From an uncultured Gammaproteobacteria bacterium (lineage in GTDB: Bacteria; Patescibacteriota; Microgenomatia; UBA8517): a stretch of 64,000 bases of DNA. Below are positions 9,757-32,831 of the stretch, in pieces (the first letter of the stretch is position 1; each line of letters starts with the position of its first letter). The position numbers were made by a program, and so were the translations under genes. Location of the stretch: positions 213,862 to 277,861 of the forward strand of contig CAZOVJ010000002.1 in NCBI GenBank assembly GCA_964583685.1, read 5' to 3'. The notes below the pieces were generated by a model, which saw nothing but the letters and a program-made list of their open reading frames with translations, had not been told where the DNA came from and made no database searches.

Positions 9757-9760
9757 GTTT

Positions 9761-10210
9761 TTAGATACTCATTTCTTCAAGGTCGGAACTGGTAACGCGG
9801 AGGGGCTCAAAAGAGTAATTGATAGGAGGTAATCCTCGACCGTCTTTGGATTTGACAGAAAGTTTAATATTGTAAACACTGTTGAACTTCCAAGAAGGGA
9901 CAGGTTTAAGATAGATAGTTTTATCTGTTTTGTCCGTTGATATTTCGTAGTCTGTTAAGGGATTAATGTTCACCACGATGCTTGATTTATCAACAGCCGA
10001 GCTGAAAAGAAAGGATATTGCCAAGTCGGGAATTACTATTTCTTGTTTTCCCTCAGTGGGGGAGATTTGTTCTAAGACAAAAGGGACGGGAGTTGGTGCT
10101 GGTTGAGGAGCAGGGCTTGGCTCGGGCCTGAAGATAAAAAAGAGAGTGATACCTAAAACTAAAAGAAGAACAATGGCAATTATCTTATGTCTTTTTAGAA
10201 AACTTCGCAT
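9761..10210 (-). CDS. Secreted/anchored small protein with Pro-rich linker and Ig-like beta domain
   Basis: N-terminal TM/signal (IIAIVLLLVLGITLFFIF), PAPQPAPTPVP linker. Confidence 0.4.
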   Translation of the reverse strand: MRSFLKRHKIIAIVLLLVLGITLFFIFRPEPSPAPQPAPTPVPFVLEQISPTEGKQEIVIPDLAISFLFSSAVDKSSIVVNINPLTDYEISTDKTDKTIYLKPVPSWKFNSVYNIKLSVKSKDGRGLPPINYSFEPLRVTSSDLEEMSI

Positions 10211-10224
10211 ATTTTCATTCTACA

Positions 10225-11991
10225 TTAAAAACAGAAATATTCCTCGGGTCTAACGTAGACACCGTTTATGGCAAACTCCAAGTGCAAATGAGTGTTTCCT
10301 CCTAGATTAAATAACTCTCCTATTTTTGCCCCACTGGGGATACTCGTCCCGTAATTCGCTTCCCTTTTAAGGTGGGTGAAAACGATTGTGTATCCCCTAT
10401 TGGAGTCAAGATAAACATGGCTCCAGCCGGCTCTACCATTAGAAAAGCTGTTGTCATATACCCAGATGGTTTCTTCACCCAAGACCCGGGGAGCGAGGAC
10501 ATCAGTCGAGCCTGAAGGGAAAACATCGATGGCATAACCATAATAGGAGCACCTATTTGCCTGGCCTGAGCAGATGTTTCCTGGGCTGTTCAAAGGGCCC
10601 CGGCAGCCAGTTCCCTGAGGGAGAGCATAGCGACAACTACCTCCAACCCTTATCCAATACTCATTACTGCCGTGGCCAATTTCCCGTCCAGAATCATAAG
10701 AACCGTCAAGAGCCCCACGCATTCTTCCTCCGGGAACAGGACAATCAATAGGCGGATTGCCGATGACCACAGAGGCATTTGTGCTGGCAGTTGCCCCTTT
10801 CTGTTCTGATGTGTTGGCCGTGACAGTCAGGGAGTCAATAATGATTGAGTTATCATATTCTGTCCCCAAATTTAGTGAGTAGGTAAAGGTAAAACCTTGA
10901 CCCGGAGAGATTGTTTGAGGAAGATCGTTAAGTGCTTCTATCTCTGGATTTGGTTCGGCTGCATTACTTTCTCCGATGACTTTATATTGGTTTCTGATTT
11001 GAATATTGCTTAAACTTCCTTTTTTAGCGTAAATTTTTACTGTATATTCTACTGGGCCAAAACTGGGACAGCCAGCCCTGTTCATACAATTAGGGTCTGC
11101 GGTTTTCTCAATACCGATATAAGGAGAAGTGATTGCTCCTGGGACAAATGAGGGTGCTGGGGGGACAATGTAGGCGCCGGAATTGATGATAAAGAGAATG
11201 ACGGCGACGATGAGGGGGATAGCTACTATTACAACAACTGCAGGAGCAATCATCGCTCCGAGTGCCGCGCCCAATAAACCGGGAAAGGCGACTAAAATTA
11301 CACCAAGGCCAATAGCCGCTCCTGGAACCCCGCCGACCACAGCCAGGCCAGCGGCAGTTAGGCCAGCCATTACCTTTTTCCAGTTACGCTTGAGCAAGGG
11401 AATAACCTTGGTGGCAACCTGACTAGCTAGGGCACCAACAATTGGCGAGGCGACAATTGAAGCGGCAATCCCGGCAATCTTTGAAGCCAGAAACTGAACT
11501 CCTTTTTTAAGAAGTTTAGCCAGTCCTGTTTTAGCTAGTTTTCCAATACCTTTTTTAACAAGACCGCCAACGACTTGTTCTCCGGCCATCCTTCCTACTT
11601 CACCAAACACTCCTTTTAGGGGTATTGGGTTCTGCTTGAGGTTGGTTTCTAGTCTAGTATTAAAGTTTTCTTTCCAGACATTGTGAACATCTGTATTAAG
11701 CTCAACCTTGCTGGCTTCAATATCGGCGCTATGTTGCTGGTATTCATCTAAAAGGTTCAAGACTTCTGGTTCTGGCCTGGCCGGCTGGCCCGGGACTGGT
11801 CGGGAGACCTCTTTTTGGAGCAAGCCTTGAATTTGTTGAAGTTTCTGATCAGCGGGGATGTTCTCAGGGATTGTTCCTCGGAAAAGGGAAAGGAATGTTT
11901 CTTTTGAAACTCCCCGGTATTCATCTGACTGGGGACGAAGACGGAAAAAGCTGGCGACATCGATTAAAAATTGGGCTAATGACCTTTTCAT
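10225..11991 (-). CDS. Membrane protein with C-terminal M23 (LytM-type) peptidase domain; putative T4SS-associated cell-wall hydrolase
   Basis: N-terminal coiled coil, Gly/Ala-rich multi-TM core, C-terminal YAIDVF...GNTHLHLEF (HxxxD and HxH M23 motifs); adjacent to VirB4. Confidence 0.6.
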   Translation of the reverse strand: MKRSLAQFLIDVASFFRLRPQSDEYRGVSKETFLSLFRGTIPENIPADQKLQQIQGLLQKEVSRPVPGQPARPEPEVLNLLDEYQQHSADIEASKVELNTDVHNVWKENFNTRLETNLKQNPIPLKGVFGEVGRMAGEQVVGGLVKKGIGKLAKTGLAKLLKKGVQFLASKIAGIAASIVASPIVGALASQVATKVIPLLKRNWKKVMAGLTAAGLAVVGGVPGAAIGLGVILVAFPGLLGAALGAMIAPAVVVIVAIPLIVAVILFIINSGAYIVPPAPSFVPGAITSPYIGIEKTADPNCMNRAGCPSFGPVEYTVKIYAKKGSLSNIQIRNQYKVIGESNAAEPNPEIEALNDLPQTISPGQGFTFTYSLNLGTEYDNSIIIDSLTVTANTSEQKGATASTNASVVIGNPPIDCPVPGGRMRGALDGSYDSGREIGHGSNEYWIRVGGSCRYALPQGTGCRGPLNSPGNICSGQANRCSYYGYAIDVFPSGSTDVLAPRVLGEETIWVYDNSFSNGRAGWSHVYLDSNRGYTIVFTHLKREANYGTSIPSGAKIGELFNLGGNTHLHLEFAINGVYVRPEEYFCF

Positions 11992-13766
11992 TTTGTGATA
12001 AGTCGATATTCCTCTTGGGAGGAGACAATTTTAATGGGTGCATGATGGGGTCCGGCAAAAAGAATCCCCTCGCCAATATTGGCGGCCATGAGTAATTGTT
12101 TTTCTCCTTGAGATAAATAGAAAACCTCACCCACTTTGTCAATGGCAGCAGGAGATTGCTTTAAGAGGAGTTGCATGGCTGAGTTGGTAAGAATTGCCTT
12201 GCCAATATCTTGAGCCAGGAAATCTTCAACATCTTGGGTAATGGTTGTTAATCCTAGAGAATATTTTCTGGCCCGTTTGACCACAGACCAAAGAAATTGG
12301 GCCGAGTCTGGAAACCTCATCATATGCCAGGCCTCATCAACAACCAGCAGTCTTCTTTTTCGCTCTTTTTTGATTTTTGTCCAGATAAAATCAAGAATGA
12401 TGAACATGGCGATTGGTCTTAAGACATCCTCGAGCTCTCTAACAGAAAAGACGGTAAAAGGATTTCGAATATCAATGTTCGTGTGCTGGTCAAAAATTCC
12501 CACAAAAGAACCTTTGACAAATTTTTCAATTCTAGCGGCCAGGTCAAGGGCTTCTTTTGTTTCCATGCCGATTAAAACTTTGTAAAGATCTTCCATCAGG
12601 GGTGGCTCTTTGCTTTGGCTGTTCGGGTCCTGGGTGATCCCCTTTGCCTTATAGGAGGCAACCAGAGCTCCATCAAGTAACGCTTCTTGAGAGGCGGTTA
12701 GCTGGCCCATGATTATCTTAAGAAGAGAATGGAGAGAAAGGATTTTCAATCCCAGTTGATTTTCCCCCGCTTCATAGATCTGGGAGAGACCAAAAGGATT
12801 AATTTTAGAAGGAGAGGAAAAAGAGAAGGAGATAAATTCGCCTCCAACAGCATCAGCAAGGTTTTTATATTCACTTTCCGGGTCGATGACGATTATCTCT
12901 GTTCCCAACATCAAAGACCTTAAAGACTCAAGTTTGACAAAAAAGCTCTTCCCCGCCCCGCTGGTGGCAAAGATGCTCATATTTGAATTCTCCAAAGAGA
13001 ATCTGTCAAAAATAATAAAGGACTCATTTTGAGAATTGATTCCGTACAAAACACCGCTGTCACTTGAAAGTTCAGCCGAAGTAAAGGGAAAGGTTGTTGC
13101 CAGAGAAGTGGTGTCCATGTTGCGGGTGATTACCAGTTTATCTAAGCCGAAGGGGGCGGTTGAAAGGAAACCCTGTTCCATGTCCAGCGTTGCCTGTCTG
13201 GCCACAACCATTAAAGACCCCAGGGTTGATTCAACTTGACGAGTAAGTTGATTGAGTTCCTCTAAAGATGAAGCAGGGATGGTTATATAAAAGGAAAACT
13301 CAAAAAATCTCTCTACCCCCTTAACCAACTGTTCTTGTAAAACTTTGGCATCTTCCAGTTTTGCCTGGGTTGATGGGTTGGCAATTTTACCTCTTTGTAT
13401 ATCAGTAGAGATTTCCGCCTCCATTTCAGCGATTTTACGTCTGAGATCATCGAGGACGCCTTTTCCCTCAACTGGATGAATATAAAAGGAGATATCCAGG
13501 GAGGCGTTAAAGTTGATTATCGGTTCCAACCAACCAGGGGAGACAAATCTAGGATAGCCGGCCATGAACAGGGTTCGCAGATAAACATCACCAATCTTTA
13601 TGTAGCCAAAATCAACCTCCATCTTTTCCGGGGCGATTAAATCTAAAGAATGGAGAAATTTTTGTTCAAAGGCAATCAAAGGGTCAGCGATTTTTGGCTT
13701 TTCCACTATGGGGGCAGGAACCGGAGTTGTTCTTTTCTCAACAGGCTTTTTTTTAGGCAGTTTCAT
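11988..13766 (-). CDS. virB4: VirB4/TrbE/CagE-family conjugative ATPase (C-terminal ATPase part)
   Basis: Walker A SGAGKSFF, Walker B LLVVDEAWHMM, 592 aa. Confidence 0.8.
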   Translation of the reverse strand: MKLPKKKPVEKRTTPVPAPIVEKPKIADPLIAFEQKFLHSLDLIAPEKMEVDFGYIKIGDVYLRTLFMAGYPRFVSPGWLEPIINFNASLDISFYIHPVEGKGVLDDLRRKIAEMEAEISTDIQRGKIANPSTQAKLEDAKVLQEQLVKGVERFFEFSFYITIPASSLEELNQLTRQVESTLGSLMVVARQATLDMEQGFLSTAPFGLDKLVITRNMDTTSLATTFPFTSAELSSDSGVLYGINSQNESFIIFDRFSLENSNMSIFATSGAGKSFFVKLESLRSLMLGTEIIVIDPESEYKNLADAVGGEFISFSFSSPSKINPFGLSQIYEAGENQLGLKILSLHSLLKIIMGQLTASQEALLDGALVASYKAKGITQDPNSQSKEPPLMEDLYKVLIGMETKEALDLAARIEKFVKGSFVGIFDQHTNIDIRNPFTVFSVRELEDVLRPIAMFIILDFIWTKIKKERKRRLLVVDEAWHMMRFPDSAQFLWSVVKRARKYSLGLTTITQDVEDFLAQDIGKAILTNSAMQLLLKQSPAAIDKVGEVFYLSQGEKQLLMAANIGEGILFAGPHHAPIKIVSSQEEYRLITK

Positions 13767-14445
13767 TCTGGGAATTTTCTCCTTTCTTTATGACTTTTAT
13801 GGGTTGGGGATTATATGTTTCGTAAAAAAGGTTTATTAATTGTTCTGTTGTTAGCTGTTTTAATTTAAGCCCCAAGCGACCGGCTTGTCTGATGATATGG
13901 TCACGTTTTGGGTAAAGGGCGATTTTTGCCTTTTTAATAACATAGTTTTTGGGAAAGGGAAGCGGACCAGATTTTTTGGTTGTTGCCAGGAATGATTTTG
14001 TTATTCCCAATTCAAGGTTGGAGAAGGGGATAATGATGAAAAACCTTTTGCCCAAAACATTTTTCTTTTTGATTGTTTCAGAAATGAAATTTTTATAACC
14101 AGCCATGATGACTTGAAGCTTGGGATTGCTGATTTTCTGGCCTGCTTGGTCAAGGAAGGATAAATAATTTGAGATATCCTTTCTTTGTGAGCGAATGAGA
14201 ATTTGAACAGAAAAGGAAAGGCTGTTTAGAAATGCAGCATAGGAAACAATTACCGCCTGCTGTTCCTTTTCCGACAAGAGACCGAAGTTAAGGGAAGTTG
14301 ATTCAAGAACCAGAGCAGCCCCACCGTTCTTAAAAAGAACAATGTTTTCCAGAACATCGGCTATGGGTAGCCCCTTTTGGCTGGTGGAAGAGATGGGTCT
14401 ATCAGGGATGTTCAGTAAAGGTATTTTTAGGTTTTTAATTGACAA
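13753..14445 (-). CDS. VirB4 N-terminal-domain-like protein (separate ORF overlapping virB4 by 14 nt)
   Basis: 230 aa, ...FKNGGAALVLESTSLNFGLLSEKEQQAVIVSYAAFLNSLSFSVQILIRSQRKDISNYL... resembles the N-terminal region of Gram-positive-type VirB4 proteins; 230+592 aa gives a full-length VirB4. Confidence 0.4.
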   Translation of the reverse strand: MSIKNLKIPLLNIPDRPISSTSQKGLPIADVLENIVLFKNGGAALVLESTSLNFGLLSEKEQQAVIVSYAAFLNSLSFSVQILIRSQRKDISNYLSFLDQAGQKISNPKLQVIMAGYKNFISETIKKKNVLGKRFFIIIPFSNLELGITKSFLATTKKSGPLPFPKNYVIKKAKIALYPKRDHIIRQAGRLGLKLKQLTTEQLINLFYETYNPQPIKVIKKGENSQNETA

Positions 14446-15430
14446 CTTCTACGCTCCTTTCTCTGGCCTTGGCCTTGACGGCAATGGGCGGGATTATTGA
14501 GCCCTTGGCCTCAAATTTTAGAGGGCTAAAGATTAATCCTTCTTTCTCCGTTATCAATTCATAGGTGCCGTTAATCAAGGGAGTTAGGGCTAAGAAATGA
14601 CCAGCCTTGTTGGTTTTAAATGCCCTAACCGGCCGGCCTTGGGCATCTTTTATTTCCAATATCGCGCCTTCAACTATCTTGGCCTCAGGGGTCATTACCT
14701 GACCAACTACAGTATTTGGTCTGGTTGGTGGATTGGGAGGGGCTGCTTCAAGGGAAAACTGGGGCAACTGAGCGCCGATTGCTCTTTGCCCCTTTAGAGT
14801 TTGTTCAACCATGGTTGTTTGCGGCTGGATGACGCCCACCTGGGCTGGGGCTGATGTTTCTTCAACAACAAAACCGGCCTTAGGTGGTTTAGGTGATTTA
14901 GGAATGGGTATTGTTTTTTGGGGAACCTGGACCGTTTTTTGTGGGGCAGAAGGGAGAATAGAGGTTAAGAGGGCGGTAATCTTAGAAAGAAAAGATTGTT
15001 CAGATGTTTCCAGCTTGGTTAGAAAAGGACTTTTCAATTGGGGCAGGGTTGCCAAATAAGTTTCGGCCGCTTTTTCTCCATGGGGGATGATTATTTCTTC
15101 TTTGGGAGCTGGTCTTTCTTCTCTAAAGAAAATTGGTGGCTTTTTACTTCCTCGCCAAAAATAGAGGGTTGGTGAATAAACAGACCTAAAAAAGGCGATA
15201 ATCCATTTTTCTAAAGACCTTTCTTGAAAGGGTAAAAAGGCCAGGGCTGCTCCCAGAAGGGCAAAAAACAAAATAGCCGGCCATTTAATTATCGGATGGA
15301 GAGGGGAGGCATAGAACAAAAGGGAGACCAAACAGCCCCCGGCAAGCTGAAGAAATTGCTTTAAGGTCATGTCTCCTACCAAGCGAAATTGGTAAGAAGA
15401 GATTTGTTGCGGGACAGGATGCTGCTCCAT
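14435..15430 (-). CDS. PrgI/VirB3-like two-TM protein fused to Pro-rich linker and carboxypeptidase-regulatory-like beta domain
   Basis: N-term LKQFLQLAGGCLVSLLFYA...WPAILFFALLGAALAFLPF (2 TM, PrgI-like); C-term GAILEIKDAQGRPVRAFKTNKAGHFLALTPLINGTYEL (CarbopepD_reg-like); directly upstream of VirB4. Confidence 0.4.
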   Translation of the reverse strand: MEQHPVPQQISSYQFRLVGDMTLKQFLQLAGGCLVSLLFYASPLHPIIKWPAILFFALLGAALAFLPFQERSLEKWIIAFFRSVYSPTLYFWRGSKKPPIFFREERPAPKEEIIIPHGEKAAETYLATLPQLKSPFLTKLETSEQSFLSKITALLTSILPSAPQKTVQVPQKTIPIPKSPKPPKAGFVVEETSAPAQVGVIQPQTTMVEQTLKGQRAIGAQLPQFSLEAAPPNPPTRPNTVVGQVMTPEAKIVEGAILEIKDAQGRPVRAFKTNKAGHFLALTPLINGTYELITEKEGLIFSPLKFEAKGSIIPPIAVKAKARERSVEVVN

Positions 15431-15497: not shown

Positions 15498-16148
15498 TTA
15501 GAGTTGTTTCCCTTTGTATTCTCTTGTGGTTTTTATAAAGTATTTGACAATTTCTTCTACTTTATATTCTTCTCGCAGATAATTTACGCCAAAGTCGACG
15601 ATATCCTTAGTATAAACGAGCTGTTCTAGGAAAAGCCTTGGGTTAAATTCACCCCTGAAACGCTTTATTGCTTCTTTTATGACAGAATCTATTGTTGTGT
15701 AACCTTCTTTCAGAAAAAAGAACATATCTACATAATCCCTCCAGGTACCTCGCCGTCCTATGGCATAGGCTTTATTACTTGCTAAATCGTGTAGACTGAA
15801 AAGGTTAATTGAGGTTGTCATAACGAGGGGATGTAGAGGGGGATATGGATATTTTACAAAACTGATTTTAACTTCACCTGGAGTAATGATGTCGATTTGG
15901 TTTGTAATATCTTTTATTATCTGAGAACTATGGCCAAATACTTTTCTAATTTTTTGACGTAAATAATCTGTTGTTTTGCTTTTTATAAAGATGTCGAAGT
16001 CAAAAGATTTTCGGTGTTTTATTTGAAGTGCTATAGCTGTTCCACCTCCAAGTACCCCGGTTTTCTTAAAAGACCCGAGTTTCTTAAAAACCCTAAGCCT
16101 TTCTCTGTCAAATATTTCTAGGTAAATTTTCGACATACTTACTCTCAT
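15498..16148 (-). CDS. Nucleotidyltransferase AbiEii/DUF1814-like toxin
   Basis: GGGTAIALQIKHRKSFDFDIF matches the GGTAL / R-S-D-D-F motifs of AbiEii-family NTases. Confidence 0.55.
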   Translation of the reverse strand: MRVSMSKIYLEIFDRERLRVFKKLGSFKKTGVLGGGTAIALQIKHRKSFDFDIFIKSKTTDYLRQKIRKVFGHSSQIIKDITNQIDIITPGEVKISFVKYPYPPLHPLVMTTSINLFSLHDLASNKAYAIGRRGTWRDYVDMFFFLKEGYTTIDSVIKEAIKRFRGEFNPRLFLEQLVYTKDIVDFGVNYLREEYKVEEIVKYFIKTTREYKGKQL

Positions 16149-16410
16149 CTAGGGTTTGTTTTAGGTTCTCTAAGAGAATTGTTTTAACCCAATTGAAAGA
16201 GAACGAAGAGTAAATCTTCATTGGTTTTTTTAGAAATACTTTTTTTATTTCTTCTTCTGAATAAGCCTTAAAAAGCCACTTTAAATGTTTAAAGGTGCCA
16301 TAAGCCAAGGTTTGGTTGATAATGTAGGCGCGGTCTTTTTCGAGGTCTAGACTTTTGATATCCCGTGACCAAAGAATTGGTTGTAGTCTTTGAGGAATTT
16401 TAGCTTTCAT
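16108..16410 (-). CDS. Putative cognate antitoxin (short AbiEi-like) for the AbiEii-like NTase
   Basis: 100-aa ORF overlapping the NTase gene by 41 nt, upstream position. Confidence 0.3.
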   Translation of the reverse strand: MKAKIPQRLQPILWSRDIKSLDLEKDRAYIINQTLAYGTFKHLKWLFKAYSEEEIKKVFLKKPMKIYSSFSFNWVKTILLENLKQTLDESKYVENLPRNI

Positions 16411-17722: not shown

Positions 17723-19468
17723 ATGTCTGAACAAGGAGAAGGACCGGAGATAATACCTGCTGGTGGGTCGTGGAGCCCGGAGACAATAAAGAGGACAGCC
17801 GAGGCAACAAAGGTTAAAGGCTACGGCCCCATTCGCCCGGGAGGGGAGAAGGAGCAAATCCCGCGTATAGAAATTGATACAGGCCCCCTGGCAGACCAGG
17901 TAAAGGAGTTAATAAAAGGCCAGGAGGGTTTATTGGCTACTTTTGAAGCTCAACGTTTATCAACTGAGCAGCTTCTTGGGCTCTCACAAAAACAGAGTGA
18001 TGAATTAGTCAGAAGTTTGCAAAAGTTGCCGACCAGTCAAGAACGAGCACGGTGGGTGGACGTAGAATATAACCGTCTATTTTATACAAGATTTACTCCC
18101 AACATCGAGCCAAGATTTTACACAGAGATTTCCGATCCAGAAGAGAGAGCATTGTGGGACGCCAGATGGCAACTTGCCCGGGCCGCTTACTTTAAGCTGG
18201 CAACAACCGCCTTTCCCGATAAGTATGTAGAAAATGCAGACATTCAGCTTTTAAGCAATGAGCAGCTGGGGAGGCTTTATAAAATGCCCGGGGTTAAGCC
18301 AATGCTAAAGGCGTATGCAGAGGCAATAGTTGGAAAAAGAAAAGTGGTTGTTGAGAAGGATGGTGAAGACGAGACAATAACAATCTGGGATTGTAAAAGC
18401 ATGGCGGATTTTGAAAAATTCCGGACAAAATTGAGAGGGGAAAGTTTATCTATTGATGAACAGATGAAGGATGCAGTAGAAAGGGAAATAGAGAAACGAG
18501 AGCGTTCGGAATCAAGAAAGCTTAATGAAAGAGAAAGAAGAGAAACCAGAAAGCTTTTGGAAAAGGAGGCGGATGCGGTTGCCTTTAACCTATTTTGGGT
18601 TTCTAATCAAATAGAATCCTCTAATAGTCGTTATTCTGATGCCGGTAAGTTTCATAGATTACCTGGCGGAATGGCCTCACTGGAATTTTGGAGTGTGATG
18701 CATCCACAGGAGAGATTTGAGATTAAGGTCGAGCATTCTCAGAATTGGGGAGCGTTTAGTACTTGGGGAATTGAACAAATAGAAAGATTTAAAAATGAGG
18801 TGGGTTTTGACGATGATGATAAGGATAATAAGATAGAATTTCAAGCCGCTCCACGAGATAAATATTGGGAAAGGGGTCCAACAACAGAGCTTCCCGAAAA
18901 AAAGGGTAAGGTTTATACAATTTATGCCCCAGAATGTTATCCGATACTCACTTGTAGAAGTCTTTTTGAACATACCCGAGAGGAGGGGGGGAGTAAAAAA
19001 ACACTTTTGGAGCGCTTCTCAAAGGGCGGAGATGTAATCTGGGGAGATATTGGGGCAGACGCAGCAGTAAGGTGGCTTACCAGTAAATTTAACAAAGCGG
19101 TACCGCTTCTTGAGTATTATAATCCCGGAAAACCGTTCGAAAGGCGAGATTTCGGTTGGGGAAAGACATGGGCAGACCCTTTGAAAGAATTACTCGAAGC
19201 CCGTTTGAAATTGAACAAGGCCCTGGAAGGCCCCAAAGGGAAAGAAAGAAAGGAAGGATCCATACTGGGGATAACCCACCAGACCTATCACAACCTAAAA
19301 GTTTGGGCCATTTATGCTGCTCATGGGGGTGTGGCCTTTCCAGACAAAAGAGAACCGACACTAAATCTACCGGGTCTTCCGGGGAATGAGCAATTAATAT
19401 TAGGGAGGGCGCTGCGCCACGAAAAAGTTGAATATTTGGATATGCATGAAGGCTTCAGAATAGAATAA
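17723..19468 (+). CDS. Hypothetical protein (581 aa, charged coiled-coil middle, W/G-rich C-terminal region)
   Basis: Long ORF immediately downstream of the zinc-ribbon protein; no recognisable motifs. Confidence 0.5.
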   Translation: MSEQGEGPEIIPAGGSWSPETIKRTAEATKVKGYGPIRPGGEKEQIPRIEIDTGPLADQVKELIKGQEGLLATFEAQRLSTEQLLGLSQKQSDELVRSLQKLPTSQERARWVDVEYNRLFYTRFTPNIEPRFYTEISDPEERALWDARWQLARAAYFKLATTAFPDKYVENADIQLLSNEQLGRLYKMPGVKPMLKAYAEAIVGKRKVVVEKDGEDETITIWDCKSMADFEKFRTKLRGESLSIDEQMKDAVEREIEKRERSESRKLNERERRETRKLLEKEADAVAFNLFWVSNQIESSNSRYSDAGKFHRLPGGMASLEFWSVMHPQERFEIKVEHSQNWGAFSTWGIEQIERFKNEVGFDDDDKDNKIEFQAAPRDKYWERGPTTELPEKKGKVYTIYAPECYPILTCRSLFEHTREEGGSKKTLLERFSKGGDVIWGDIGADAAVRWLTSKFNKAVPLLEYYNPGKPFERRDFGWGKTWADPLKELLEARLKLNKALEGPKGKERKEGSILGITHQTYHNLKVWAIYAAHGGVAFPDKREPTLNLPGLPGNEQLILGRALRHEKVEYLDMHEGFRIE

Positions 19469-19649: not shown

Positions 19650-21311
19650 TTATTGTTTTTTAAGCCCCAGCAGCCTCCTGGCTGTGCGGGCGATAGCAAT
19701 CTTCCGGCCCACATCTTGTCCAGCGCCTCTCTCGCCTTCTTCTAAGGCCTGAATTCCCATTTCTGCACCGTATAAACCTCCCCATTTACCCACCTGGCGG
19801 GATGGGCCAAAAGTTTCTCCTATTGCCGCACCGAAGGGGAAGGGTTTGCCTTCAATAAGCGAGCGAATCAAATTTCCGGCAGAAGGAACAAGGAAAAGAA
19901 TGACCAGAGAGACAAGAAAACCCACAAGAGCGGGGCTTCCCCAAAATCCCGGAAGTGAAATAAGGTCCGAAGAAATTGTGTTGTTGCTAAGATCAAAGAG
20001 ATCAAGGCCGCTGCTGCTAAATGGCCCAAGCTTAAGAGGAACTGTTGCCCAAAAGAAGTAGTGAGATAGAAAGAGCATAATAATAATCGTTGGATAGACA
20101 GCAGCATTGGCAAGCAGGTTTTTTAGCCAAGAACCAATTCCTCCAAAGCCAGGAAAGGCACCAAGAAGTAGGATTAAAGGGCCGGCAATTATTAAGAGGA
20201 GAAGGTTGATAAAGGTTTTAACTTGGAGCCAGACGATACGAATTACAGCGACAAGCAGAGCAATGAAGATTAATAGGAGCATTACTAAACCCATGATAGC
20301 CCCGACGACCGCGCCAGCCCCCATCGCATACCCCGCTCCTATGATTGCAGCCCCCCCGACAAGAGGCACAGTAGCGGCAATCAACAATGAGAGGCAAATC
20401 GCAAGGAGAGAGGGGCCTCCTATCATTTCTTGAATTAGCCTTCCCAAATCGAGATAGCTGATATCTGTGCCAACAGATTTCACACATACTCCTACTGCCG
20501 CGACGACAACATAAGAGAGGTCTATTACAAGACCGGCAATAGCATAGGAGAAAGCAATTAAAATCAAGACAAGTATTAATCGGGGGAGGGCAGATTGAAT
20601 GGTGATTACTGTTTGGGGCGAGATTTTGACCCGGAACATAATCATAAAGGCAATAGCCACAAAAACAAGAACCATTAAGAAGTAGGCTATATTACTGGTT
20701 GCCTTCCAAAGGGACTGAATGGGTTGGAGGTTTCTAAAACCGTAGCCTTGGGCACGGGCCTCAGGGATGATGTGGAGACGCGAGGCTGCGTCAGCCAGAT
20801 ACTGGACACCCGAGGCAGGATGATTTGTTGAAAAGGAATCACCGACAGCGGCCAAGGTGAGTATTGGCCCTAATGAAGGGAGAGATGATTGATCAGGAGA
20901 CTCTGTGTTTTCTTGCTGATTTCCTATTAAACTTGGAACGATTACATTTAAACAGTCTCTTACCATCTCAAGATTACCGCTTTTACCTTCGGCCAAACAC
21001 CTGCTTACTTCCTCGTCGTTGGCAATTATTGTTAATGAATGTCCTATCCAGGCAACCTGGGCATAGGTATAGCGCTCGCCGAAGATTTCAGTTGGGTTAT
21101 CCGGATCAAAGACCCTGAGAACAAAATCGGCAAAATCTGGATTATACCAGGGCCTTGGCTCCTCCTGAGCCCTGGCAACGGACACGGTAAAAGAAATCAA
21201 GAGAAAGCAGGCAAGGAGAATCGAGACAAGCAGTTTTTTGGGCATAGCAAAATTATAATAACATATCTTATCGCCCAGGGGGGAGATGACCTTCGTCAAT
21301 CCACATTGCAA
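19650..21311 (-). CDS. VirB6/TrbL-like polytopic membrane protein
   Basis: Signal/anchor, periplasmic N-domain, at least 6 TM in Gly/Ala-rich core; location next to pilin array and SLT protein. Confidence 0.45.
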   Translation of the reverse strand: MQCGLTKVISPLGDKICYYNFAMPKKLLVSILLACFLLISFTVSVARAQEEPRPWYNPDFADFVLRVFDPDNPTEIFGERYTYAQVAWIGHSLTIIANDEEVSRCLAEGKSGNLEMVRDCLNVIVPSLIGNQQENTESPDQSSLPSLGPILTLAAVGDSFSTNHPASGVQYLADAASRLHIIPEARAQGYGFRNLQPIQSLWKATSNIAYFLMVLVFVAIAFMIMFRVKISPQTVITIQSALPRLILVLILIAFSYAIAGLVIDLSYVVVAAVGVCVKSVGTDISYLDLGRLIQEMIGGPSLLAICLSLLIAATVPLVGGAAIIGAGYAMGAGAVVGAIMGLVMLLLIFIALLVAVIRIVWLQVKTFINLLLLIIAGPLILLLGAFPGFGGIGSWLKNLLANAAVYPTIIIMLFLSHYFFWATVPLKLGPFSSSGLDLFDLSNNTISSDLISLPGFWGSPALVGFLVSLVILFLVPSAGNLIRSLIEGKPFPFGAAIGETFGPSRQVGKWGGLYGAEMGIQALEEGERGAGQDVGRKIAIARTARRLLGLKKQ

Positions 21312-23889
21312 CTCCGTGACAATAGGTTATCCCGGCCCCCCAGCGGATCACTCCGATATCGACGTAGCCCCCACGTTCCCTGGTTTCCTCATCGCTGCAG
21401 CCAATAGTTCCACCATAGTTGCCAACATAAACCATGTCTCCCCCAAGAGTCACCTTTCCATTACTGTCATACTCGAGCTGGATGCCCCGGCCGCCATATG
21501 TAGGGTCAGAGGGATTAAATCTACCGTATTTTTTCCAAAGTAAGATGCGCGCAGCCAGTTCCAGAGCATCAGAGGCTTCGCAAGGGTTTAAGAAATTGGG
21601 ACTGTTGGGGTTCTGTTCGTCTGTTGTCGTCACGCCATAGTAGGCACCGCGACCGATTTGTACAGGACCGCAGTAAGAAGAGCGTAGTTCGTAGGTATCC
21701 CATTCCCCACAGAGCTCACCCTTTTTCGAGGGTTTACATGGGCCTGATTGGCTACCATTGCTTTCGATTTGCCAGATAGCCTCAAGGACTTCTGCTGGCA
21801 CATCGTATCTGACGGCAATACCGGCCAGGTCCTGAGAAATCGGATGAGGAAAGCCAGAGATTGTTTCGCCAAAGTCTTGAGGCCGTAAAGCCTTTTGGAT
21901 TCCCTTTAAAAAATATTCATAGATTCCACCAAGATGGGGGATAAAAATATTAGCCCTTTCACCAGACCTGTTATTGGATGGATTTCCGGCCAGAACTTCG
22001 ACACCATCAGTAGTTGATGAATAACGGGCAGTAGTTACTCCAGGCAAATCCATAAGCTCAACTTGCTCCAGAAGACCTTTGGGATAAAGTCGTTTATAAA
22101 TAGATTGTTCCCCGGCCACCAGCTTGTCCCAGACCTCGTCAGCCTTGGGCGTTCTGGTATAAACAGAAAGAGCAACATAAACATCTTTTTCGCAAATGTC
22201 TACAGTGGACTGACGCCGGCATTGATCAATTTCCTCTTGGGAAGGAGGGGTACCCCCGGGAAGTCGTCCTTGAAGTTGGTGAATACAATTTCGATACCTA
22301 CTTTCATCAAGTTCTGCCTCATCAGCCCCACCGAAATCACAAGTAAATTTGGCGGTATAACGGATAGTTCCGGACATTTGTTCATCTGTGTCTTCGTTTG
22401 CAGAGATCGCTTGTTCATGGTATTCACCAAAAAGGTCGTCGCCTGAATTCCAGCGGGCATTTTCTAAATCGCAATAATCGGTGTCATAAAACTTGACCTT
22501 TTCCGTCAGTACTCCCAGGGTTTCTCCTCCAATAGCGGCACTATCTTGGTCACTTCTGACCTTGGGTATCTTGGGTTTTTTGCCTGGAACATAGGTTTTT
22601 TGCAGCAGATTGGCTAAATCGGAAACCTCTTCCATGTGGCTAAAGTAAAGATTGTGGAAATCGCTATCTGGATAATCCTCGTAGTCTGGGGAATCAGGTT
22701 CAAAAGTTACATCCGTAACCTCGACATCGTTCTCAAGATTAATTTCCGGCTGGCTGGTGGCTGAAAGGTCAGCAATAACCTGTCCCTTTCTATTCTCGGT
22801 GGAGGAATAGGGGATATAGGGAAAGAGGTAGGAGAAAAGGCGTCGGTCACTAAGAGGATCGTCGATGCAGAAGTAGATTGGTAACCCAAAGACTCCAAGA
22901 TGGGGAGTACAAACTTTTCCTCTCCATCTTAGATAATCCCGCCAGTAATCGATAAAATTTGAATAATCTTCTTCACGAGGAGGGAGATAGTTAATCCATT
23001 CGCTAAGGCGATATTTGTTTTCAGAGAAAAAGAGGTTTGCAAATAGAGTCTGTAATGCTGGAGCTAGATTTTCACCAACCAAATTTTTGGTTGCCGGTTC
23101 ATAGCAAGGAACCTGGACTTCAGGATTAAGCGGAAAAAGAGCGCCGGGCTCTGCGGTGCAGACGACTATTTGATTATGTCTAAAAGAAGTAACCTCGAAT
23201 TCCTGGGTTAGACGGGCATTGGCTATCTGCTGAAATCGTGCATCGGCTTGAACGCGCCAGGGAAGGAGTTTGTTTAAGGGGCCTGAATAATCGATGAGAA
23301 GATAGCTTATTTGCTCAGGGGTATAGGGACTATAAGAGCTGACAGGCCAATTGCCAAGGGACAATTCTTCTGGCCGGTAAAGGGACCCGTTCAAATACCA
23401 ACTGACATATTCGTTCATCCTGGTGGATGGACCAAGCATATTTCCACCTAGATCACCCATCCCTTCTTGACTGTTTGGCACGAGCTGGGTGTTGCCCATG
23501 ATGGGCAGTTCGGCGTCGGATAAGCCTATGGAGACATAGGCTGTTTCCTGGGATTCGTAATAGCAGGTTCGCGAGCCATCAGGACCTATTTTGCAGCTCC
23601 CGGTAGCTGGGGTAACGGTGAAGGTTTTTTTGATAATCAGGTCATTGCCGCAATAAAGCTTGGTTTCTTTAACTTCCCTATCACAGGGGCTGGCTTGGTA
23701 GGGCCGGAGAGAATGAAACTCGTCATCATCAGTTATTTCGTTTGTTTCATTACAGGGAACATAAGGCTCAGGAACCTGGGCAAAGGTAGAAGCAGGGAAT
23801 ACCAAATGCGAAGTACCAAATGCGAAGTACCAAATGAAGATAGTTATCGTATCTCGTATCTCGTATCTCGTGGTTTTGGGCAGACTCAT
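21268..23889 (-). CDS. Large secreted Cys-rich surface protein with C-terminal lytic-transglycosylase (SLT/VirB1-like) domain
   Basis: 873 aa; signal peptide; ...VPAEVLEAIWQIESNGSQSG... SLT-type catalytic ES motif; many Cys. Confidence 0.55.
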   Translation of the reverse strand: MSLPKTTRYEIRDTITIFIWYFAFGTSHLVFPASTFAQVPEPYVPCNETNEITDDDEFHSLRPYQASPCDREVKETKLYCGNDLIIKKTFTVTPATGSCKIGPDGSRTCYYESQETAYVSIGLSDAELPIMGNTQLVPNSQEGMGDLGGNMLGPSTRMNEYVSWYLNGSLYRPEELSLGNWPVSSYSPYTPEQISYLLIDYSGPLNKLLPWRVQADARFQQIANARLTQEFEVTSFRHNQIVVCTAEPGALFPLNPEVQVPCYEPATKNLVGENLAPALQTLFANLFFSENKYRLSEWINYLPPREEDYSNFIDYWRDYLRWRGKVCTPHLGVFGLPIYFCIDDPLSDRRLFSYLFPYIPYSSTENRKGQVIADLSATSQPEINLENDVEVTDVTFEPDSPDYEDYPDSDFHNLYFSHMEEVSDLANLLQKTYVPGKKPKIPKVRSDQDSAAIGGETLGVLTEKVKFYDTDYCDLENARWNSGDDLFGEYHEQAISANEDTDEQMSGTIRYTAKFTCDFGGADEAELDESRYRNCIHQLQGRLPGGTPPSQEEIDQCRRQSTVDICEKDVYVALSVYTRTPKADEVWDKLVAGEQSIYKRLYPKGLLEQVELMDLPGVTTARYSSTTDGVEVLAGNPSNNRSGERANIFIPHLGGIYEYFLKGIQKALRPQDFGETISGFPHPISQDLAGIAVRYDVPAEVLEAIWQIESNGSQSGPCKPSKKGELCGEWDTYELRSSYCGPVQIGRGAYYGVTTTDEQNPNSPNFLNPCEASDALELAARILLWKKYGRFNPSDPTYGGRGIQLEYDSNGKVTLGGDMVYVGNYGGTIGCSDEETRERGGYVDIGVIRWGAGITYCHGVAMWIDEGHLPPGR

Positions 23890-23896
23890 TTTGGCC

Positions 23897-24220
23897 CTAT
23901 TGGTAAATTTTGAATCTAAGAATTCCTGTCACTCCGGTGAAGTCAGCAATGAAGCGGAGGACGAGATAAGAAAGGGCAATAAAGACCAGGCCGGCGATGG
24001 CATAGGTCAGGGTCTTTTTTGCTCCTTCTAAGGCTTTTGGTTCTCCAGCGGCAGTGATGAACTTGAATCCTCCGAGAACAAGCATGATAAAAAAAACAAT
24101 CCCTACTATTCCCAAGATGGCTGAGATGACATTAGCAAACGAACCTTCAAGGCCCTCTAATGTAGCAATGCCACCTTGGGTTTTAATCACTGCTGCCTGA
24201 ATTGTCTTTGCCCTTAACAT
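23897..24220 (-). CDS. VirB2/TrbC-like pilin paralog 1
   Basis: Signal-like N-term, two hydrophobic helices, shared motif LVLGGFKFITAAGEPKALEGAKKTLTYAIAGLVFI. Confidence 0.5.
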   Translation of the reverse strand: MLRAKTIQAAVIKTQGGIATLEGLEGSFANVISAILGIVGIVFFIMLVLGGFKFITAAGEPKALEGAKKTLTYAIAGLVFIALSYLVLRFIADFTGVTGILRFKIYQ

Positions 24221-24318
24221 AATTGCACCCCAGCTATGTGTTGTGTTCTAAGTTTAGCCCAAGAAGAGAACTTCAAGCAAGTTGCTGGTTCTCAAAATTT
24301 TTATAATTCGAGTAGTTG

Positions 24319-24702
24319 TTATTGTATAGAAGGAATTGTAAGTCCCCCAAGAATATCAATGCCAAAGAAGGTTTCTATTAATTTAATAATTGCCCAGGCG
24401 GCAAAGACGATGACCAAGCCAACCAGGGCAGCGGTAATCTGGTTTCTGGCCGTTTCTGTTTGAGCCTTATCTCCACCAGAGACTATCCAGCGGATTCCTC
24501 CGACGACTAGGATGAAGAAGAAGACAACTGCGGCAACAACCATGGCAAACTTGATAGCACCTGATATGATTCCGGGGACGGTGATTTTTGACAAATCTAC
24601 AGCCAAACCCTCACCACTAGGCGAAAGGTCTATTGTTGTATTTGTATCGGATGTACCACTACCAGCTGCTGCGTGGATTATATTAGACAGAAAACTAAAC
24701 AT
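24319..24702 (-). CDS. VirB2/TrbC-like pilin paralog 2
   Basis: Motif LVVGGIRWIVSGGDKAQTETARNQITAALVGLVIVFAAWAIIKLIE. Confidence 0.5.
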   Translation of the reverse strand: MFSFLSNIIHAAAGSGTSDTNTTIDLSPSGEGLAVDLSKITVPGIISGAIKFAMVVAAVVFFFILVVGGIRWIVSGGDKAQTETARNQITAALVGLVIVFAAWAIIKLIETFFGIDILGGLTIPSIQ

Positions 24703-24716
24703 TTCCTTAGCTAATA

Positions 24717-25058
24717 TTATTGAATCTTCAATGGACCGATGTCAAGGGTTAAAATGTTGGTGCCAAAGAAGGATTCAACAAGCTTGATAATGGCAAAGCT
24801 GGAGAAGAGAATGACAATACCTACCAGGGCATTAACTACTTTCCCGCGGGCTTGTTCAACCGCTGCTTTATCACCGCCAGAGGTTATCCACTGAATGGCG
24901 CCGATAACCAGGATAAAAAAGAAAATGATAACGCCAATGACAAAGATTAAACCAACTAGATTAGGAAGTAACCTTTGAAGAAATCCGATTCCTCCCTCTG
25001 TCTGTAAAATTTCTTGGAGATTGTCAGAGAGAGCGGGGTTTGTAATCGGGTTTTCCAT
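24717..25058 (-). CDS. VirB2/TrbC-like pilin paralog 3
   Basis: Motif LVIGAIQWITSGGDKAAVEQARGKVVNALVGIVILFSSFAIIKLVE. Confidence 0.5.
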   Translation of the reverse strand: MENPITNPALSDNLQEILQTEGGIGFLQRLLPNLVGLIFVIGVIIFFFILVIGAIQWITSGGDKAAVEQARGKVVNALVGIVILFSSFAIIKLVESFFGTNILTLDIGPLKIQ

Positions 25059-25059
25059 T

Positions 25060-25455
25060 TTAGCCTCCCATCCTACCGATTGTGTTAATGATTTCTGCTG
25101 GGTTAAGAATCAAATCAAAGCCAAGGATTTTACCAATCAGCTCGATGAGGAAAATGGCGGCAATAACAATGACCAGCCCGACCAACCCGTTGGTAATACT
25201 TTTTTTGGCTGATTCCATGGCTGCCTTGTCTCCACCAGCAGCCATGATACCGATAGCACCGATGAAGAGGATAATGATAAACCAGATGGCGGCAATCATG
25301 GTCATGATGCCGATAGTGCCGGATAGGACTTTGTTTAAAAGCCCAGGAGCTGCACTTGCCTCCTTTCCTTCAAGGCCAAGGGGGCCTATTCCCCTAAGCA
25401 TGTCGTCTGGATAAAGCTTAATCTCTGCTAACAATTGTCCTGATAAACTATTCAT
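25060..25455 (-). CDS. VirB2/TrbC-like pilin paralog 4
   Basis: Motif LFIGAIGIMAAGGDKAAMESAKKSITNGLVGLVIVIAAIFLIELI. Confidence 0.5.
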   Translation of the reverse strand: MNSLSGQLLAEIKLYPDDMLRGIGPLGLEGKEASAAPGLLNKVLSGTIGIMTMIAAIWFIIILFIGAIGIMAAGGDKAAMESAKKSITNGLVGLVIVIAAIFLIELIGKILGFDLILNPAEIINTIGRMGG

Positions 25456-25805
25456 GGTGTAGGTATCGCTGGTTTAAGAAAAGCGGTTGGGTCTCCAAGT
25501 AAAAGCTGGCCAAAGATGGCGGCCAAACTAAAAGAACCGAGAACAACAGCCAGGCCCAAAAGAGTTTGCCAAATCTTGGCCCAGGCACCAGCTATTTTTT
25601 GGGTATCATCACCAGCATTTAAAAAAGCATAGCCGGCCAGAATTAGGTTGATAATCCCGTAAATTCCGGCAACGACAATCAGAAAGTTGAAGATTAGATT
25701 GATAAATTTACCAATCGCTCCACTCTCAACATCGCCGTATTTTGAGGTCATAGTGTCAGGCAGTTTTATTGTGCCAAAGGGACTCTGGCTTAATAGTTTT
25801 CTCAT
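25452..25805 (-). CDS. VirB2/TrbC-like pilin paralog 5 (more divergent)
   Basis: Two hydrophobic helices; LILAGYAFLNAGDDTQKIAGAWAKIWQTLLGLAVVLG. Confidence 0.45.
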   Translation of the reverse strand: MRKLLSQSPFGTIKLPDTMTSKYGDVESGAIGKFINLIFNFLIVVAGIYGIINLILAGYAFLNAGDDTQKIAGAWAKIWQTLLGLAVVLGSFSLAAIFGQLLLGDPTAFLKPAIPTP

Positions 25806-26116
25806 CCGAGTATAGTTGCTCCGGTGAGCAATTCAATTAATCTTACTATCCAATAGGCAGCAAAAACAACAATGAATCCGATAACCGCCCCGGTTATTGC
25901 CTGTTTGCCCTTAGCTGCTTGTTCAGGATTGTTTGTTCCCGCACTCATCATCAAGGAGAAGCCGCCAAAAATTAAAAGAAGAATGAGCAGGATTCCGGCA
26001 ATGGCAATGGCCGCTTTCAGCACCACTGAGACTAAACTGCCAACCCCGGTCAGTTGACTAAGAAAATGACCGCTCGTTCCAAAAAACTGTTGGCCAATGT
26101 CAAAACCCTGCTTCAT
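25802..26116 (-). CDS. VirB2/TrbC-like pilin paralog 6
   Basis: LLIFGGFSLMMSAGTNNPEQAAKGKQAITGAVIGFIVVFAAYWIVRLIE. Confidence 0.5.
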   Translation of the reverse strand: MKQGFDIGQQFFGTSGHFLSQLTGVGSLVSVVLKAAIAIAGILLILLLIFGGFSLMMSAGTNNPEQAAKGKQAITGAVIGFIVVFAAYWIVRLIELLTGATILG

Positions 26117-26120
26117 TTTT

Positions 26121-26435
26121 TTACTGAAAAATACTTTTTATTCCTTCTAATCCAAGAATCAAGCTAGCGGCCTGGGTTATCCAGTAAGCAAGAAAGATGA
26201 TAACAAAGCCAAGAATAGCATAGGTTATCTTGTTTTTTGCCTCCTGCATCCCCTTGGGATCGCCAAGTGAAGTTATCAGTTGAAATCCTCCAAATAAGAG
26301 ATAAAGGAGAACCAAAATTCCGGCTCCGGCAAAAATATATGTAAGCAGGCTACTGATGATGTCGCCGATAGTTCCTCCACCGAACTTAAAACCAGGGATA
26401 TATTGCTGTAGCTTGCCAAAATTGATTCCTTCCAT
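26121..26435 (-). CDS. VirB2/TrbC-like pilin paralog 7
   Basis: YLLFGGFQLITSLGDPKGMQEAKNKITYAILGFVIIFLAYWITQ. Confidence 0.5.
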   Translation of the reverse strand: MEGINFGKLQQYIPGFKFGGGTIGDIISSLLTYIFAGAGILVLLYLLFGGFQLITSLGDPKGMQEAKNKITYAILGFVIIFLAYWITQAASLILGLEGIKSIFQ

Positions 26436-26443
26436 AAGATGAT

Positions 26444-32816: not shown

Positions 32817-32831
32817 AGAAAAATTATGCCA

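Follow-up and report, generated by a model that had tools for sequence, protein, structure and literature searches.

The closest described relatives of the locus reported here are the type IV secretion systems (T4SS) of Patescibacteria. According to sections of the survey by Quinonero-Coronel et al. 2025 (PMC12102498), the Patescibacteria VirB4 proteins form a clade related to the monoderm MPF_FATA class, TrsD is their most frequent neighbour, together with PrgI/VirB3, and the systems, above all in Microgenomatia, include 2-11 divergent VirB2-like pilins in arrays, seldom have a relaxase, and lie near dnaA/dnaN in Microgenomatia and Paceibacteria. In addition, the saccharibacterial counterpart, encoded by genes SEML1_0006-0019 in Southlakia epibionticum, is essential for epibiotic growth and has no recognisable coupling protein or relaxase (Wang et al. 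2023; PMC10633639). Here we describe an operon of this kind at positions 9761-15430 of a 64,000-nucleotide stretch of DNA (the window, in what follows), which belongs to a contig of 349,840 bp (CAZOVJ010000002.1, assembly GCA_964583685.1).

The region is a single tightly packed operon of five open reading frames (ORFs), all on the minus strand and transcribed in the order PrgI/VirB3-like protein, TrsD-like protein, VirB4, a protein of 588 amino acids (aa) ending in an M23 peptidase head, and a 149-aa protein with a Big_5 domain. Successive ORFs overlap by 11, 14 and 4 nt, the last overlap being an ATGA in which the start codon of the 588-aa gene meets the virB4 stop, and a gap of 14 nt precedes the fifth. 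We consider, with a probability of about 0.7, that the region is the membrane-motor half of a chromosomal, origin-proximal, non-conjugative Patescibacteria T4SS, together with a dedicated wall hydrolase and a head-specific partner of the latter. Its component set (VirB4, an adjacent TrsD-like protein, PrgI/VirB3 and a pilin array), the lack of a relaxase or type IV coupling protein (T4CP) nearby, the site adjacent to dnaA/dnaN and the presence of peptidase and lysozyme-type genes by virB4 all resemble what those sections of the survey and the work on Southlakia describe; the system has been published, and the locus, one more member of it, is not itself new. What our searches of the literature, as far as they show, did not find described, and what the survey sections do not describe either, is a family of hydrolase scaffolds with swappable heads and a co-varying partner gene, to which the 588-aa protein belongs. 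We rate this family as a variant of the VirB1/PrgK-type hydrolase theme of T4SS. An earlier note on this DNA, made from the letters alone, had placed the PrgI/VirB3-like, VirB4, M23 and small anchored genes at the minus-strand coordinates found here, and had proposed a sub-locus of these four; all four are present, while the fifth, the 230-aa TrsD-like ORF at 13753-14445, had been missed.

The identity of the VirB4 ATPase, including the Walker motifs already pointed out in the earlier note, is clear. It scores 382 bits with the NCBIfam CD1110-family model (cut-off 325) and matches P-loop_TraG (E=1.2e-29) and the solved C-terminal domain of VirB4 (4AG5, E=1.7e-45), with Walker A (ATSGAGKS) at 12945-12959 and Walker B (LLVVDEAW) at 12327-12344. 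Its affinity is with the monoderm (FATA) proteins, its close homologues all come from Patescibacteria, and 61 related loci have it at 58-85% identity. Within a 752-position full-length model its alignment covers positions 180-735, that is, the N-terminal domain is absent. The neighbouring TrsD-like protein matches positions 110-288 of the full-length mycoplasma VirB4 model Mbov_0397 (E=5.9e-6, below cut-off) and the NCBIfam TrsD/TraD model at E=1.3e-6, a remote match well below the curated cut-off. It gave no Pfam match and nothing useful in a phmmer search of the PDB; its orthologues carry a weak match to PF26593 (TraC-like), and its gene adjoins virB4 in 57 loci, with identities of 43-75%. 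Judging from these alignments, VirB4 is split into two genes, because the TrsD-like protein corresponds to the N-terminal domain absent from the 592-aa ATPase.

The first gene of the operon codes for a PrgI/VirB3 homologue. The PrgI profile (PF12666) covers residues 5-84 (window 15179-15418) with 26.4 bits against a gathering score of 27, and among 2032 homologues many carry PF12666 and/or PF13620 in precomputed annotation, many of those with PF12666 being more than 50% identical to the window protein. Two adjacent hydrophobic helices can be seen by inspection at about residues 24-67, of which a hydropathy scan puts only 46-70 above threshold; a Pro-rich linker and a C-terminal beta-sandwich of the CarboxypepD_reg type follow, the latter a weak match (E=0.001) at residues 240-298 (window 14537-14713). 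The order PrgI, TrsD-like, VirB4 was found in 53 of 53 loci, as opposed to a linkage with virB4 of 22.6% for the Microgenomatia VirB3 homologues in the sections of the survey that treat them (PMC12102498). The lower figure there probably arises because the PrgI domain scores just below threshold, so that PrgI/VirB3 would seem to be under-detected in Microgenomatia annotation. In the profile searches that the earlier note had suggested, VirB4 came out above its cut-off, and PrgI and M23 (26.0 bits against 28.7) just under their gathering scores.

The 588-aa protein has, as that note had read it, a Gly/Ala-rich core with several presumed transmembrane segments and a C-terminal M23 domain with the motif HLHLEF (residues 568-573). 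Its parts are listed in Table 1. Its relatives measure 650-990 aa and have a longer N-terminal region. Ala, Gly and Val abound in residues 130-285, where hydrophobic helices span about 165-280, and the hydrophobic block ends in the invariant motif ILFIINSGAYIVPP (residues 265-278). The AlphaFold model, a structure prediction that had been proposed before, is confident only at residues 290-588, with a predicted local distance difference test (pLDDT) of 85-96. In this part, Foldseek matches the stalk to ApaG, Spo0M and arrestin-type sandwiches, the stalk (residues 289-410) having no Pfam match, and matches the head to the M23 enzymes LytU (5kqb), lysostaphin (5nmy), LytM (2b13) and EnvC (4bh5), all with probability 1.0 and E of about 1e-3; root-mean-square deviations are 3.3-5 A over 109-116 columns. 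The head shares with these enzymes the H...D, H and HxH residues: H440, D489, H540, H568 and H570 show no variation among 55 heads of the same divergent M23 type. It differs from the M23 family in a 48-residue Cys-rich insertion between the first His (H440) and the Asp (D489), to which the sub-threshold Pfam score can be attributed; only profile positions 35-96 of Peptidase_M23 (PF01551), its C-terminal half, align, while family members with a canonical head pass PF01551 with 60.9 bits. A phmmer search of the PDB with the head alone gave one weak match (E=0.063). The fold and the conservation support the C-terminal head being an M23 metallopeptidase, whose activity is predicted: with the catalytic set intact, it would be expected to cut the peptide cross-links of peptidoglycan.

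The scaffold that carries this head is widespread. An exhaustive search with residues 130-415 gave 429 clusters at 50% identity (E<=1e-3), 324 of them with E<=1e-10, and a scan of species-representative genomes for the motif FIINSGAY found 56 loci, all in Patescibacteria. Similarity between members with differing heads stops at the junction motif: in about 20 loci, the tblastn matches to the 588-aa protein end at query residues 417-420. Beyond this point the heads, assigned to types by BLAST clustering of the last 150-190 residues after the junction, fall into at least seven unrelated classes. Besides the divergent M23 head of the window (Pfam 26.0 bits, below threshold), these are a canonical M23 head (60.9 bits), an HExxH zincin-like head with faint Pfam matches only, an Amidase_2 head (42.7 bits), a NAGPA phosphodiester glycosidase head (30 bits) and two types of CHAP head (27.2 and 20.8 bits for a threshold of 26, which the second does not reach). 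All the alternative heads that could be identified are cell-wall enzymes, which argues that the job of the head is wall cleavage. The members of the HExxH type occupy the same slot as the window protein, directly after a VirB4 that is 79-85% identical. In one family member, a truncated HExxH head reads as fused in frame to the C-terminal two-thirds of the downstream partner (P0221, compared with L007 591-3437); this fusion may stem from a deletion or from faulty assembly.

Downstream of the scaffold there is always a gene for a protein with an N-terminal anchor, whose family varies with the type of head. In the window this is the 149-aa protein, made of an N-terminal anchor, a Pro-rich linker and the Big_5 domain. 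Divergent M23 heads are followed by Big_5 partners of about 150 aa in the 12 of 12 loci with a detected partner, as are NAGPA heads (3/3). A family of about 188 aa follows HExxH heads (11/11), one of about 334 aa follows canonical M23 heads in 20 loci, with propeller-like families in four more, and a propeller-like family of about 380 aa follows Amidase_2 heads (4/4); each of the two CHAP types is accompanied by longer Big_5 proteins (2/2 each). By profile comparison the partners form four superfamilies, namely Big_5, propeller-like and two of unknown kind, which are partly shared between heads. The purity of the association between head and partner is 0.93, for a permutation mean of 0.41 and a maximum of 0.55. 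Head types are interspersed on a neighbour-joining tree of VirB4 (26 parsimony changes for 55 tips), a tree that is poorly resolved because VirB4 is so conserved, which made us rely mainly on nearest neighbours and on DNA comparisons. Among 38 pairs of nearest neighbours by VirB4, 29 differ in the head and 28 of these differ in the partner too; in the pairs with the same head, the partner is shared in 8 out of 9. Furthermore, pairs whose VirB4 proteins are 91-95% identical keep 77-83% nucleotide similarity throughout prgI-trsD-virB4, lose it at the scaffold gene, save for a patch at the anchor motif, and regain it in dnaN, past the partner gene. These comparisons of sequences indicate that the association is not merely phylogeny and that close relatives exchange the wall-cutting head along with the gene after it, even when VirB4 is 95% identical. 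A swap point is thereby defined, in which a conserved anchor and stalk would present one of at least seven wall-cutting enzymes, exchanged with its matched partner between near-identical machines.

According to the mechanism that we propose for the operon, the PrgI/VirB3-like protein would anchor the split VirB4, that is, the TrsD-like N-domain protein and the ATPase, at the cytoplasmic membrane, and VirB4 would power the assembly of an envelope-spanning apparatus, presumably made of a polytopic 553-aa protein and a pilus of VirB2-like pilins, whose genes lie a few kb from the operon. The 588-aa protein may act as a membrane-tethered wall-cutting enzyme, a functional analogue of VirB1/PrgK, laid out as a short cytoplasmic part, a hydrophobic anchor, the beta-sandwich stalk and the M23 endopeptidase head, which would open peptide cross-links where the machine crosses the wall. 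Cleavage of the glycan strands would be left to a lysozyme-like head, carried by an 873-aa protein of the locus, and the anchored Big_5 protein could bind, position or restrain the M23 head. By analogy with Saccharibacteria, the role of the system is most likely host contact and exchange for epibiotic growth rather than conjugation. The degree of conservation fits this picture: median identities are 76% for VirB4, 62% for TrsD and 47% for PrgI, and 35% for both the scaffold and the Big_5 protein, suggesting that the cytoplasmic and membrane parts are strongly conserved and the exposed parts evolve faster.

Several points weigh against the assignment as a T4SS motor with its own wall hydrolase. 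The PrgI and M23 scores of the window proteins lie just under the Pfam gathering thresholds, and the TrsD match lies far below the curated NCBIfam cut-off. The anchor region of the 588-aa protein was modelled at low confidence, so that the number of helices and the outward position of the head are inferred. Neither the 553-aa nor the 588-aa protein matched a VirB6, VirB8 or VirB1 profile. The remainder of the 349,840-bp contig, or of the genome, could harbour a T4CP or a relaxase; sections of the survey state that T4CP homologues distant from virB4 are common in Patescibacteria (PMC12102498). Finally, the cassette-like turnover of head and partner is less typical of housekeeping assembly factors than of conflict systems.

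This last point favours the main rival interpretation, in which scaffold-plus-head and downstream gene would be a polymorphic effector/immunity pair: the head, possibly released at the conserved junction, would attack the wall of a host or competitor at the contact site, and the anchored protein would shield the producer. The conserved N-terminal scaffold and junction (GxPPxxC), followed by at least seven unrelated enzymatic heads, would agree with it, and so would the constant presence of an anchored extracytoplasmic protein in the next gene, of a family that follows the head type, the fact that cassettes differ at 91-95% VirB4 identity, with DNA similarity breaking at the scaffold gene and resuming in dnaN, and the way of life of Patescibacteria, epibionts that need to breach the host envelope and for whose epibiotic growth the T4SS is essential. 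There is also a precedent in the X-Tfe/X-Tfi pairs of Xanthomonas, in which cis-intoxication by a peptidoglycan hydrolase is prevented by the immunity protein (PMC10933484). Like the scaffold cassettes, those pairs, which belong to the bactericidal Xanthomonas/Stenotrophomonas T4SS, and polymorphic toxins in general combine C-terminal enzymatic domains that vary, several of them hydrolysing peptidoglycan, with a small, cognate envelope-located protein encoded next, and they turn over between close relatives. However, X-Tfes are soluble and bear a C-terminal XVIPCD signal recognised by VirD4, whereas the window protein has no VirD4 nearby, is membrane-anchored and has its conserved part at the N-terminus. 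Several hydrophobic helices would hold it in the membrane, with only about 300 residues outside, which argues against delivery. Big_5 partners serve divergent M23, NAGPA and CHAP heads, and partners common to unrelated heads would be expected of a structural adaptor more than of a specific inhibitor; the ordinary VirB1 analogues of Gram-positive T4SS, too, differ in their hydrolase domains. We thus see the effector/immunity interpretation as possible but doubtful.

A narrower form of the same idea, which we regard as unlikely, takes the two-gene island between virB4 and dnaN as a rapidly exchanged, T4SS-coupled wall-attacking cassette, whose head matches the peptidoglycan chemistry of the host on which the Woesebacterium in question is a parasite and whose partner shields the producer, the two together setting host range in the episymbiosis. 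Were this true, a polymorphic effector/immunity-like module would for the first time be linked to a monoderm T4SS. More generally, if the host wall is what the heads act on, the host range of uncultivated Microgenomates could be predicted from the head type in their genomes, and the partner proteins would form a new group of hydrolase inhibitors; if the target is the wall of the producer, the plasticity would be unusual for a T4SS assembly factor. The scaffold family offers a testable handle on how ultra-small epibiotic bacteria pass cell walls.

In the preferred interpretation, the 588-aa protein is a dedicated hydrolase of the T4SS, and it may be compared with known enzymes of this kind. PrgK of pCF10, TraG of pIP501, Orf14 of Tn916 and CwlT of ICEBs1 are, like it, encoded in T4SS operons, and share its layout of an intracellular N-terminus, a membrane anchor and extracellular wall hydrolase domain(s), although for the window protein this topology is a prediction. 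In PrgK, the LytM domain is degenerate and metal-free and the active domain is a muramidase (PMC11323569), whereas the window head keeps all five catalytic and ligand residues. The 588-aa protein further differs from the PrgK type in having a single head, a beta-sandwich stalk and a multi-helix Gly/Ala-rich anchor, with no soluble lytic transglycosylase (SLT) or CHAP domain in the chain; no SLT or muramidase domain was detected in it with Pfam, NCBIfam or Foldseek, and the probable lysozyme-like head of the locus is on the separate 873-aa protein. The earlier note had regarded M23 as an odd choice for a T4SS, where SLT or CHAP would be the norm. The LytM domain of PrgK and the listing of Peptidase_M23 among the VirB1 homologues in sections of the survey (PMC12102498) show that M23 is not unprecedented in T4SS. 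Here, moreover, M23 is one of at least seven interchangeable heads, CHAP included, and a probable SLT-like head is found on another protein of the locus. What is unusual is an apparently intact M23 domain as the sole hydrolase domain of the anchored protein of the operon.

M23 proteins commonly act in septation. Hence, the 588-aa protein could be a housekeeping enzyme of division or wall remodelling, of the kind of NlpD, EnvC or ShyA, and a neighbour of the T4SS only by chance, and it may be noted that a SpoIID homologue is encoded nearby (27381-29180) and that the only NCBIfam matches of the protein, very weak ones, are to ShyC-type endopeptidases. We find this very improbable. The gene overlaps the virB4 stop and directly follows virB4 in 61 of 62 loci, and a division enzyme would not be expected to swap M23, HExxH, amidase, CHAP and NAGPA heads among close relatives.

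The chromosomal setting bears on whether the operon could be mobile. The window carries yidC, jag, dnaA and dnaN, in addition to smpB, the tmRNA gene, dnaG and rpoD, and its cumulative GC skew has a minimum at 6-8 kb, at dnaA, adjacent to dnaN. The operon converges on dnaN, the two stop codons being 4 nt apart, and a convergent dnaN lies downstream in 57 of 62 related loci. In the relatives, the gene order is pilins, a protein of about 735-870 aa, a polytopic protein of about 510-580 aa, an opposite-strand gene, PrgI, TrsD-like, VirB4, scaffold and small anchored protein, followed by convergent dnaN-dnaA; this order is conserved beside dnaN-dnaA in more than 50 related genomes. A scan of 9000-17000 for promoters and terminators gave counts no higher than shuffled controls. 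As for the direction of the genes, in 7078-15430 the origin lies near dnaA by GC skew and the T4SS operon lies to its right on the minus strand, head-on to replication.

An operon that is a remnant or a part of an integrative and conjugative element (ICE), with relaxase and coupling protein beyond the window, would explain that the best VirB4 model is of a conjugative family (CD1110, 382 bits) and that a large serine recombinase lies next to tRNA-Asn at 38148-39785, in a window that covers 64 kb of the contig. We give this hardly any credit. In more than 50 species-level genomes, the operon has the same housekeeping genes (dnaN-dnaA-rnpA-yidC) around it, which, with VirB4 identities of 58-85%, indicates vertical inheritance, and its GC content is like that of the surroundings. 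As the earlier note had said, relaxase, VirD4 and VirB11 are not seen in the 64 kb: no ORF of at least 120 aa matched their Pfam families, and only DnaA and VirB4 show a Walker A motif among the ORFs of at least 100 aa, so that there is no second P-loop ATPase; nor do element boundaries enclose the operon in the window. Sections of the survey also count relaxases in only 103 Patescibacteria genomes (PMC12102498). The recombinase island begins 11 kb past the T4SS locus, with genes for primase, sigma factor, tmRNA and tRNAs in between, and on account of these core genes the island and the T4SS as one ICE were rejected. The description of a reduced T4SS of the type known in these bacteria, rather than a self-transmissible element, has therefore stood: the relatives are Patescibacteria, synteny with dnaN-dnaA extends to more than 50 genomes, and the window has no relaxase.

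The same reduced set has been linked to DNA uptake, which the earlier note had also invoked: the machine could import DNA or nucleotides, like ComB of Helicobacter or Ced of Crenarchaeota, and so supply a cell unable to synthesise them. As in ComB, there is neither coupling protein nor relaxase in the window; VirB4 has weak NCBIfam matches to CedB (E=8e-16) and CedD (E=1e-7), and in class ABY1, according to sections of the survey, T4SS genes lie near comF, recG and radA (PMC12102498). The Ced matches, however, amount to 57.7 bits for a cut-off of 700 and 31.1 for 600, far from membership in those families, and reflect generic VirB4 similarity. No competence genes adjoin the locus within the 64 kb. 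In Southlakia, deletion of comEC abolishes transformation and leaves viability unaffected, while the T4SS is essential (PMC12857230), which indicates that DNA uptake is not the essential role of the T4SS. For these reasons uptake is disfavoured as the role of the window system, and we hold it improbable.

Table 1. Features of the T4SS locus, with positions in the window (residue ranges refer to the 588-aa protein)
Feature	Position	Strand	Basis
149-aa N-terminally anchored Big_5 immunoglobulin (Ig)-like protein	9761..10210	minus	Pfam Big_5, 25.4 bits (threshold 23.6)
588-aa membrane protein with M23 head	10225-11991	minus	Pfam, AlphaFold, Foldseek, conservation
Residues 419-588, M23 head of divergent type	10228..10737	minus	Pfam, fold, conserved residues
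Residues 411-418, junction motif GNPPIDCP	10738..10761	minus	End of similarity between members with differing heads
Residues 289-410, Ig/arrestin-like beta-sandwich stalk	10762..11127	minus	AlphaFold, Foldseek
Residues 130-280, Gly/Ala/Lys-rich segment, then hydrophobic helix block	11152..11604	minus	Hydropathy, composition, invariant columns
Residues 1-129, helical N-terminal region, presumably cytoplasmic	11605..11991	minus	Alignment; AlphaFold helices at low confidence
VirB4 ATPase, 592 aa	11988..13766	minus	NCBIfam, Pfam, PDB match, Walker motifs
TrsD-like protein, 230 aa, TTG start	13753..14445	minus	NCBIfam TrsD/TraD, VirB4 N-domain model
PrgI/VirB3-like membrane protein, 331 aa	14435..15430	minus	Pfam PrgI; trsD-virB4 downstream
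AbiEii toxin/DUF6922 antitoxin pair, not part of the T4SS	15498..16410	minus	Pfam; inserted between the halves of the locus
Opposite-strand 581-aa soluble protein	17723..19468	plus	Slot conserved, content not
553-aa polytopic membrane protein, candidate VirB6-like channel	19650..21311	minus	Topology and position only
873-aa secreted Cys-rich protein	21268..23889	minus	Conserved core to about residue 680, variable C-terminal head
Eight tandem VirB2-like pilin paralogues	23897..27388	minus	PF18895 and two-helix pattern

The second half of the locus had been taken in the earlier note for a separate sub-locus. In the relatives the two halves form a single locus, which in the window is split by a block at 15498-17690 with the AbiEii/DUF6922 pair and a gene for a 349-aa protein with a C-terminal zinc ribbon; pair and gene are absent from that position in L003-L005, and AbiEii is present in 1 of 62 related loci. 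Beyond the block, the 553-aa protein has at least six hydrophobic segments and is 30-33% identical in L003-L005, with no family match in the profile searches. According to sections of the survey, VirB6 is scarce in Microgenomatia (PMC12102498); here, by contrast, a conserved polytopic candidate is present that the profiles do not recognise. VirB1-like and VirB6-like roles are probably filled by proteins unrecognised by current T4SS profiles.

From its head (residues 680-873, window 21271-21852), the 873-aa protein is predicted to degrade walls too, which would make it the second modular protein of this kind in the locus. In its homologues the first 660-700 residues or so are shared in 92 of 119 cases, and the C-terminal heads form at least six clusters, most of them with motifs of the lysozyme/SLT type (homologues P0295-P0413). 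Pfam SLT_3, a lysozyme-like family, is above threshold at the C-terminus of five out of nine orthologues, and some add a GH5 cellulase or a NAGPA domain. The window head has the motifs LEAIWQIES, CGPVQIGRGAY and ALELAARILLWKKYG, a faint SLT_2 match (E=0.013) and an AlphaFold model with a predicted template modelling score (pTM) of 0.82, whose top Foldseek matches, weak ones (E 0.05-0.6), are almost all to lytic transglycosylases, g-type lysozymes and phage lysins. A phmmer search of the PDB with this head gave nothing useful, and a hidden Markov model seeded with the SLT_3-positive orthologues did not match the window protein. The motifs, the faint SLT_2 match and the weak but consistent fold matches make a lysozyme/SLT-like head probable. 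If so, the locus would pair a glycan cutter with a peptide cutter, echoing the peptidase and lysozyme genes beside virB4 in Southlakia.

The eight pilins measure 107, 127, 113, 131, 117, 104, 104 and 314 aa. Three of them exceed the threshold of T4SS_pilin (PF18895) and the other five show the same two-helix pattern; in the last (26444-27388, 314 aa), a signal-like segment is followed by about 230 Cys-rich residues that extend the N-terminus. In each of the loci compared (the window, L003-L005, L009 and L010), the PrgI-like gene is preceded by a long gene on the opposite strand (581-915 aa). The one in the window had no Pfam or NCBIfam match, and tblastn did not match it to the occupants of this slot in L003-L005; the 581-aa protein was rejected as the missing coupling protein, being without P-loop, hydrophobic segment, family match or conservation in the relatives.

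With regard to the source of the DNA, the organism is a Patescibacterium of the Microgenomates/Woesebacteria type, the closest homologues coming all from Patescibacteria and being mostly labelled Woesebacteria or Microgenomates. Many records of metagenome-assembled genomes with a locus of the Woesebacteria type are titled 'uncultured Gammaproteobacteria bacterium' ('Alphaproteobacteria' in the case of L054). Their VirB4 is 72-80% identical to that of the window and the synteny is identical; judged by this similarity, the titles look like generic or wrong taxonomic labels.

Further along the window, a tRNA-Asn gene (38115-38187) is overlapped by the minus-strand gene for the serine recombinase, of 545 aa. 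Low-GC DNA (0.34-0.39) follows, with an MgsA_C fragment, DUF6788 and several family-less ORFs; the region at 38-46 kb (38115-46000) has probably been integrated as an element of its own, apart from the T4SS locus. Between both, at 32457-35057, smpB is directly followed by the tmRNA gene (tag VNEKSYAPQYAVA), near which four tRNA-Ser genes with different anticodons are clustered with a tRNA-Arg gene.

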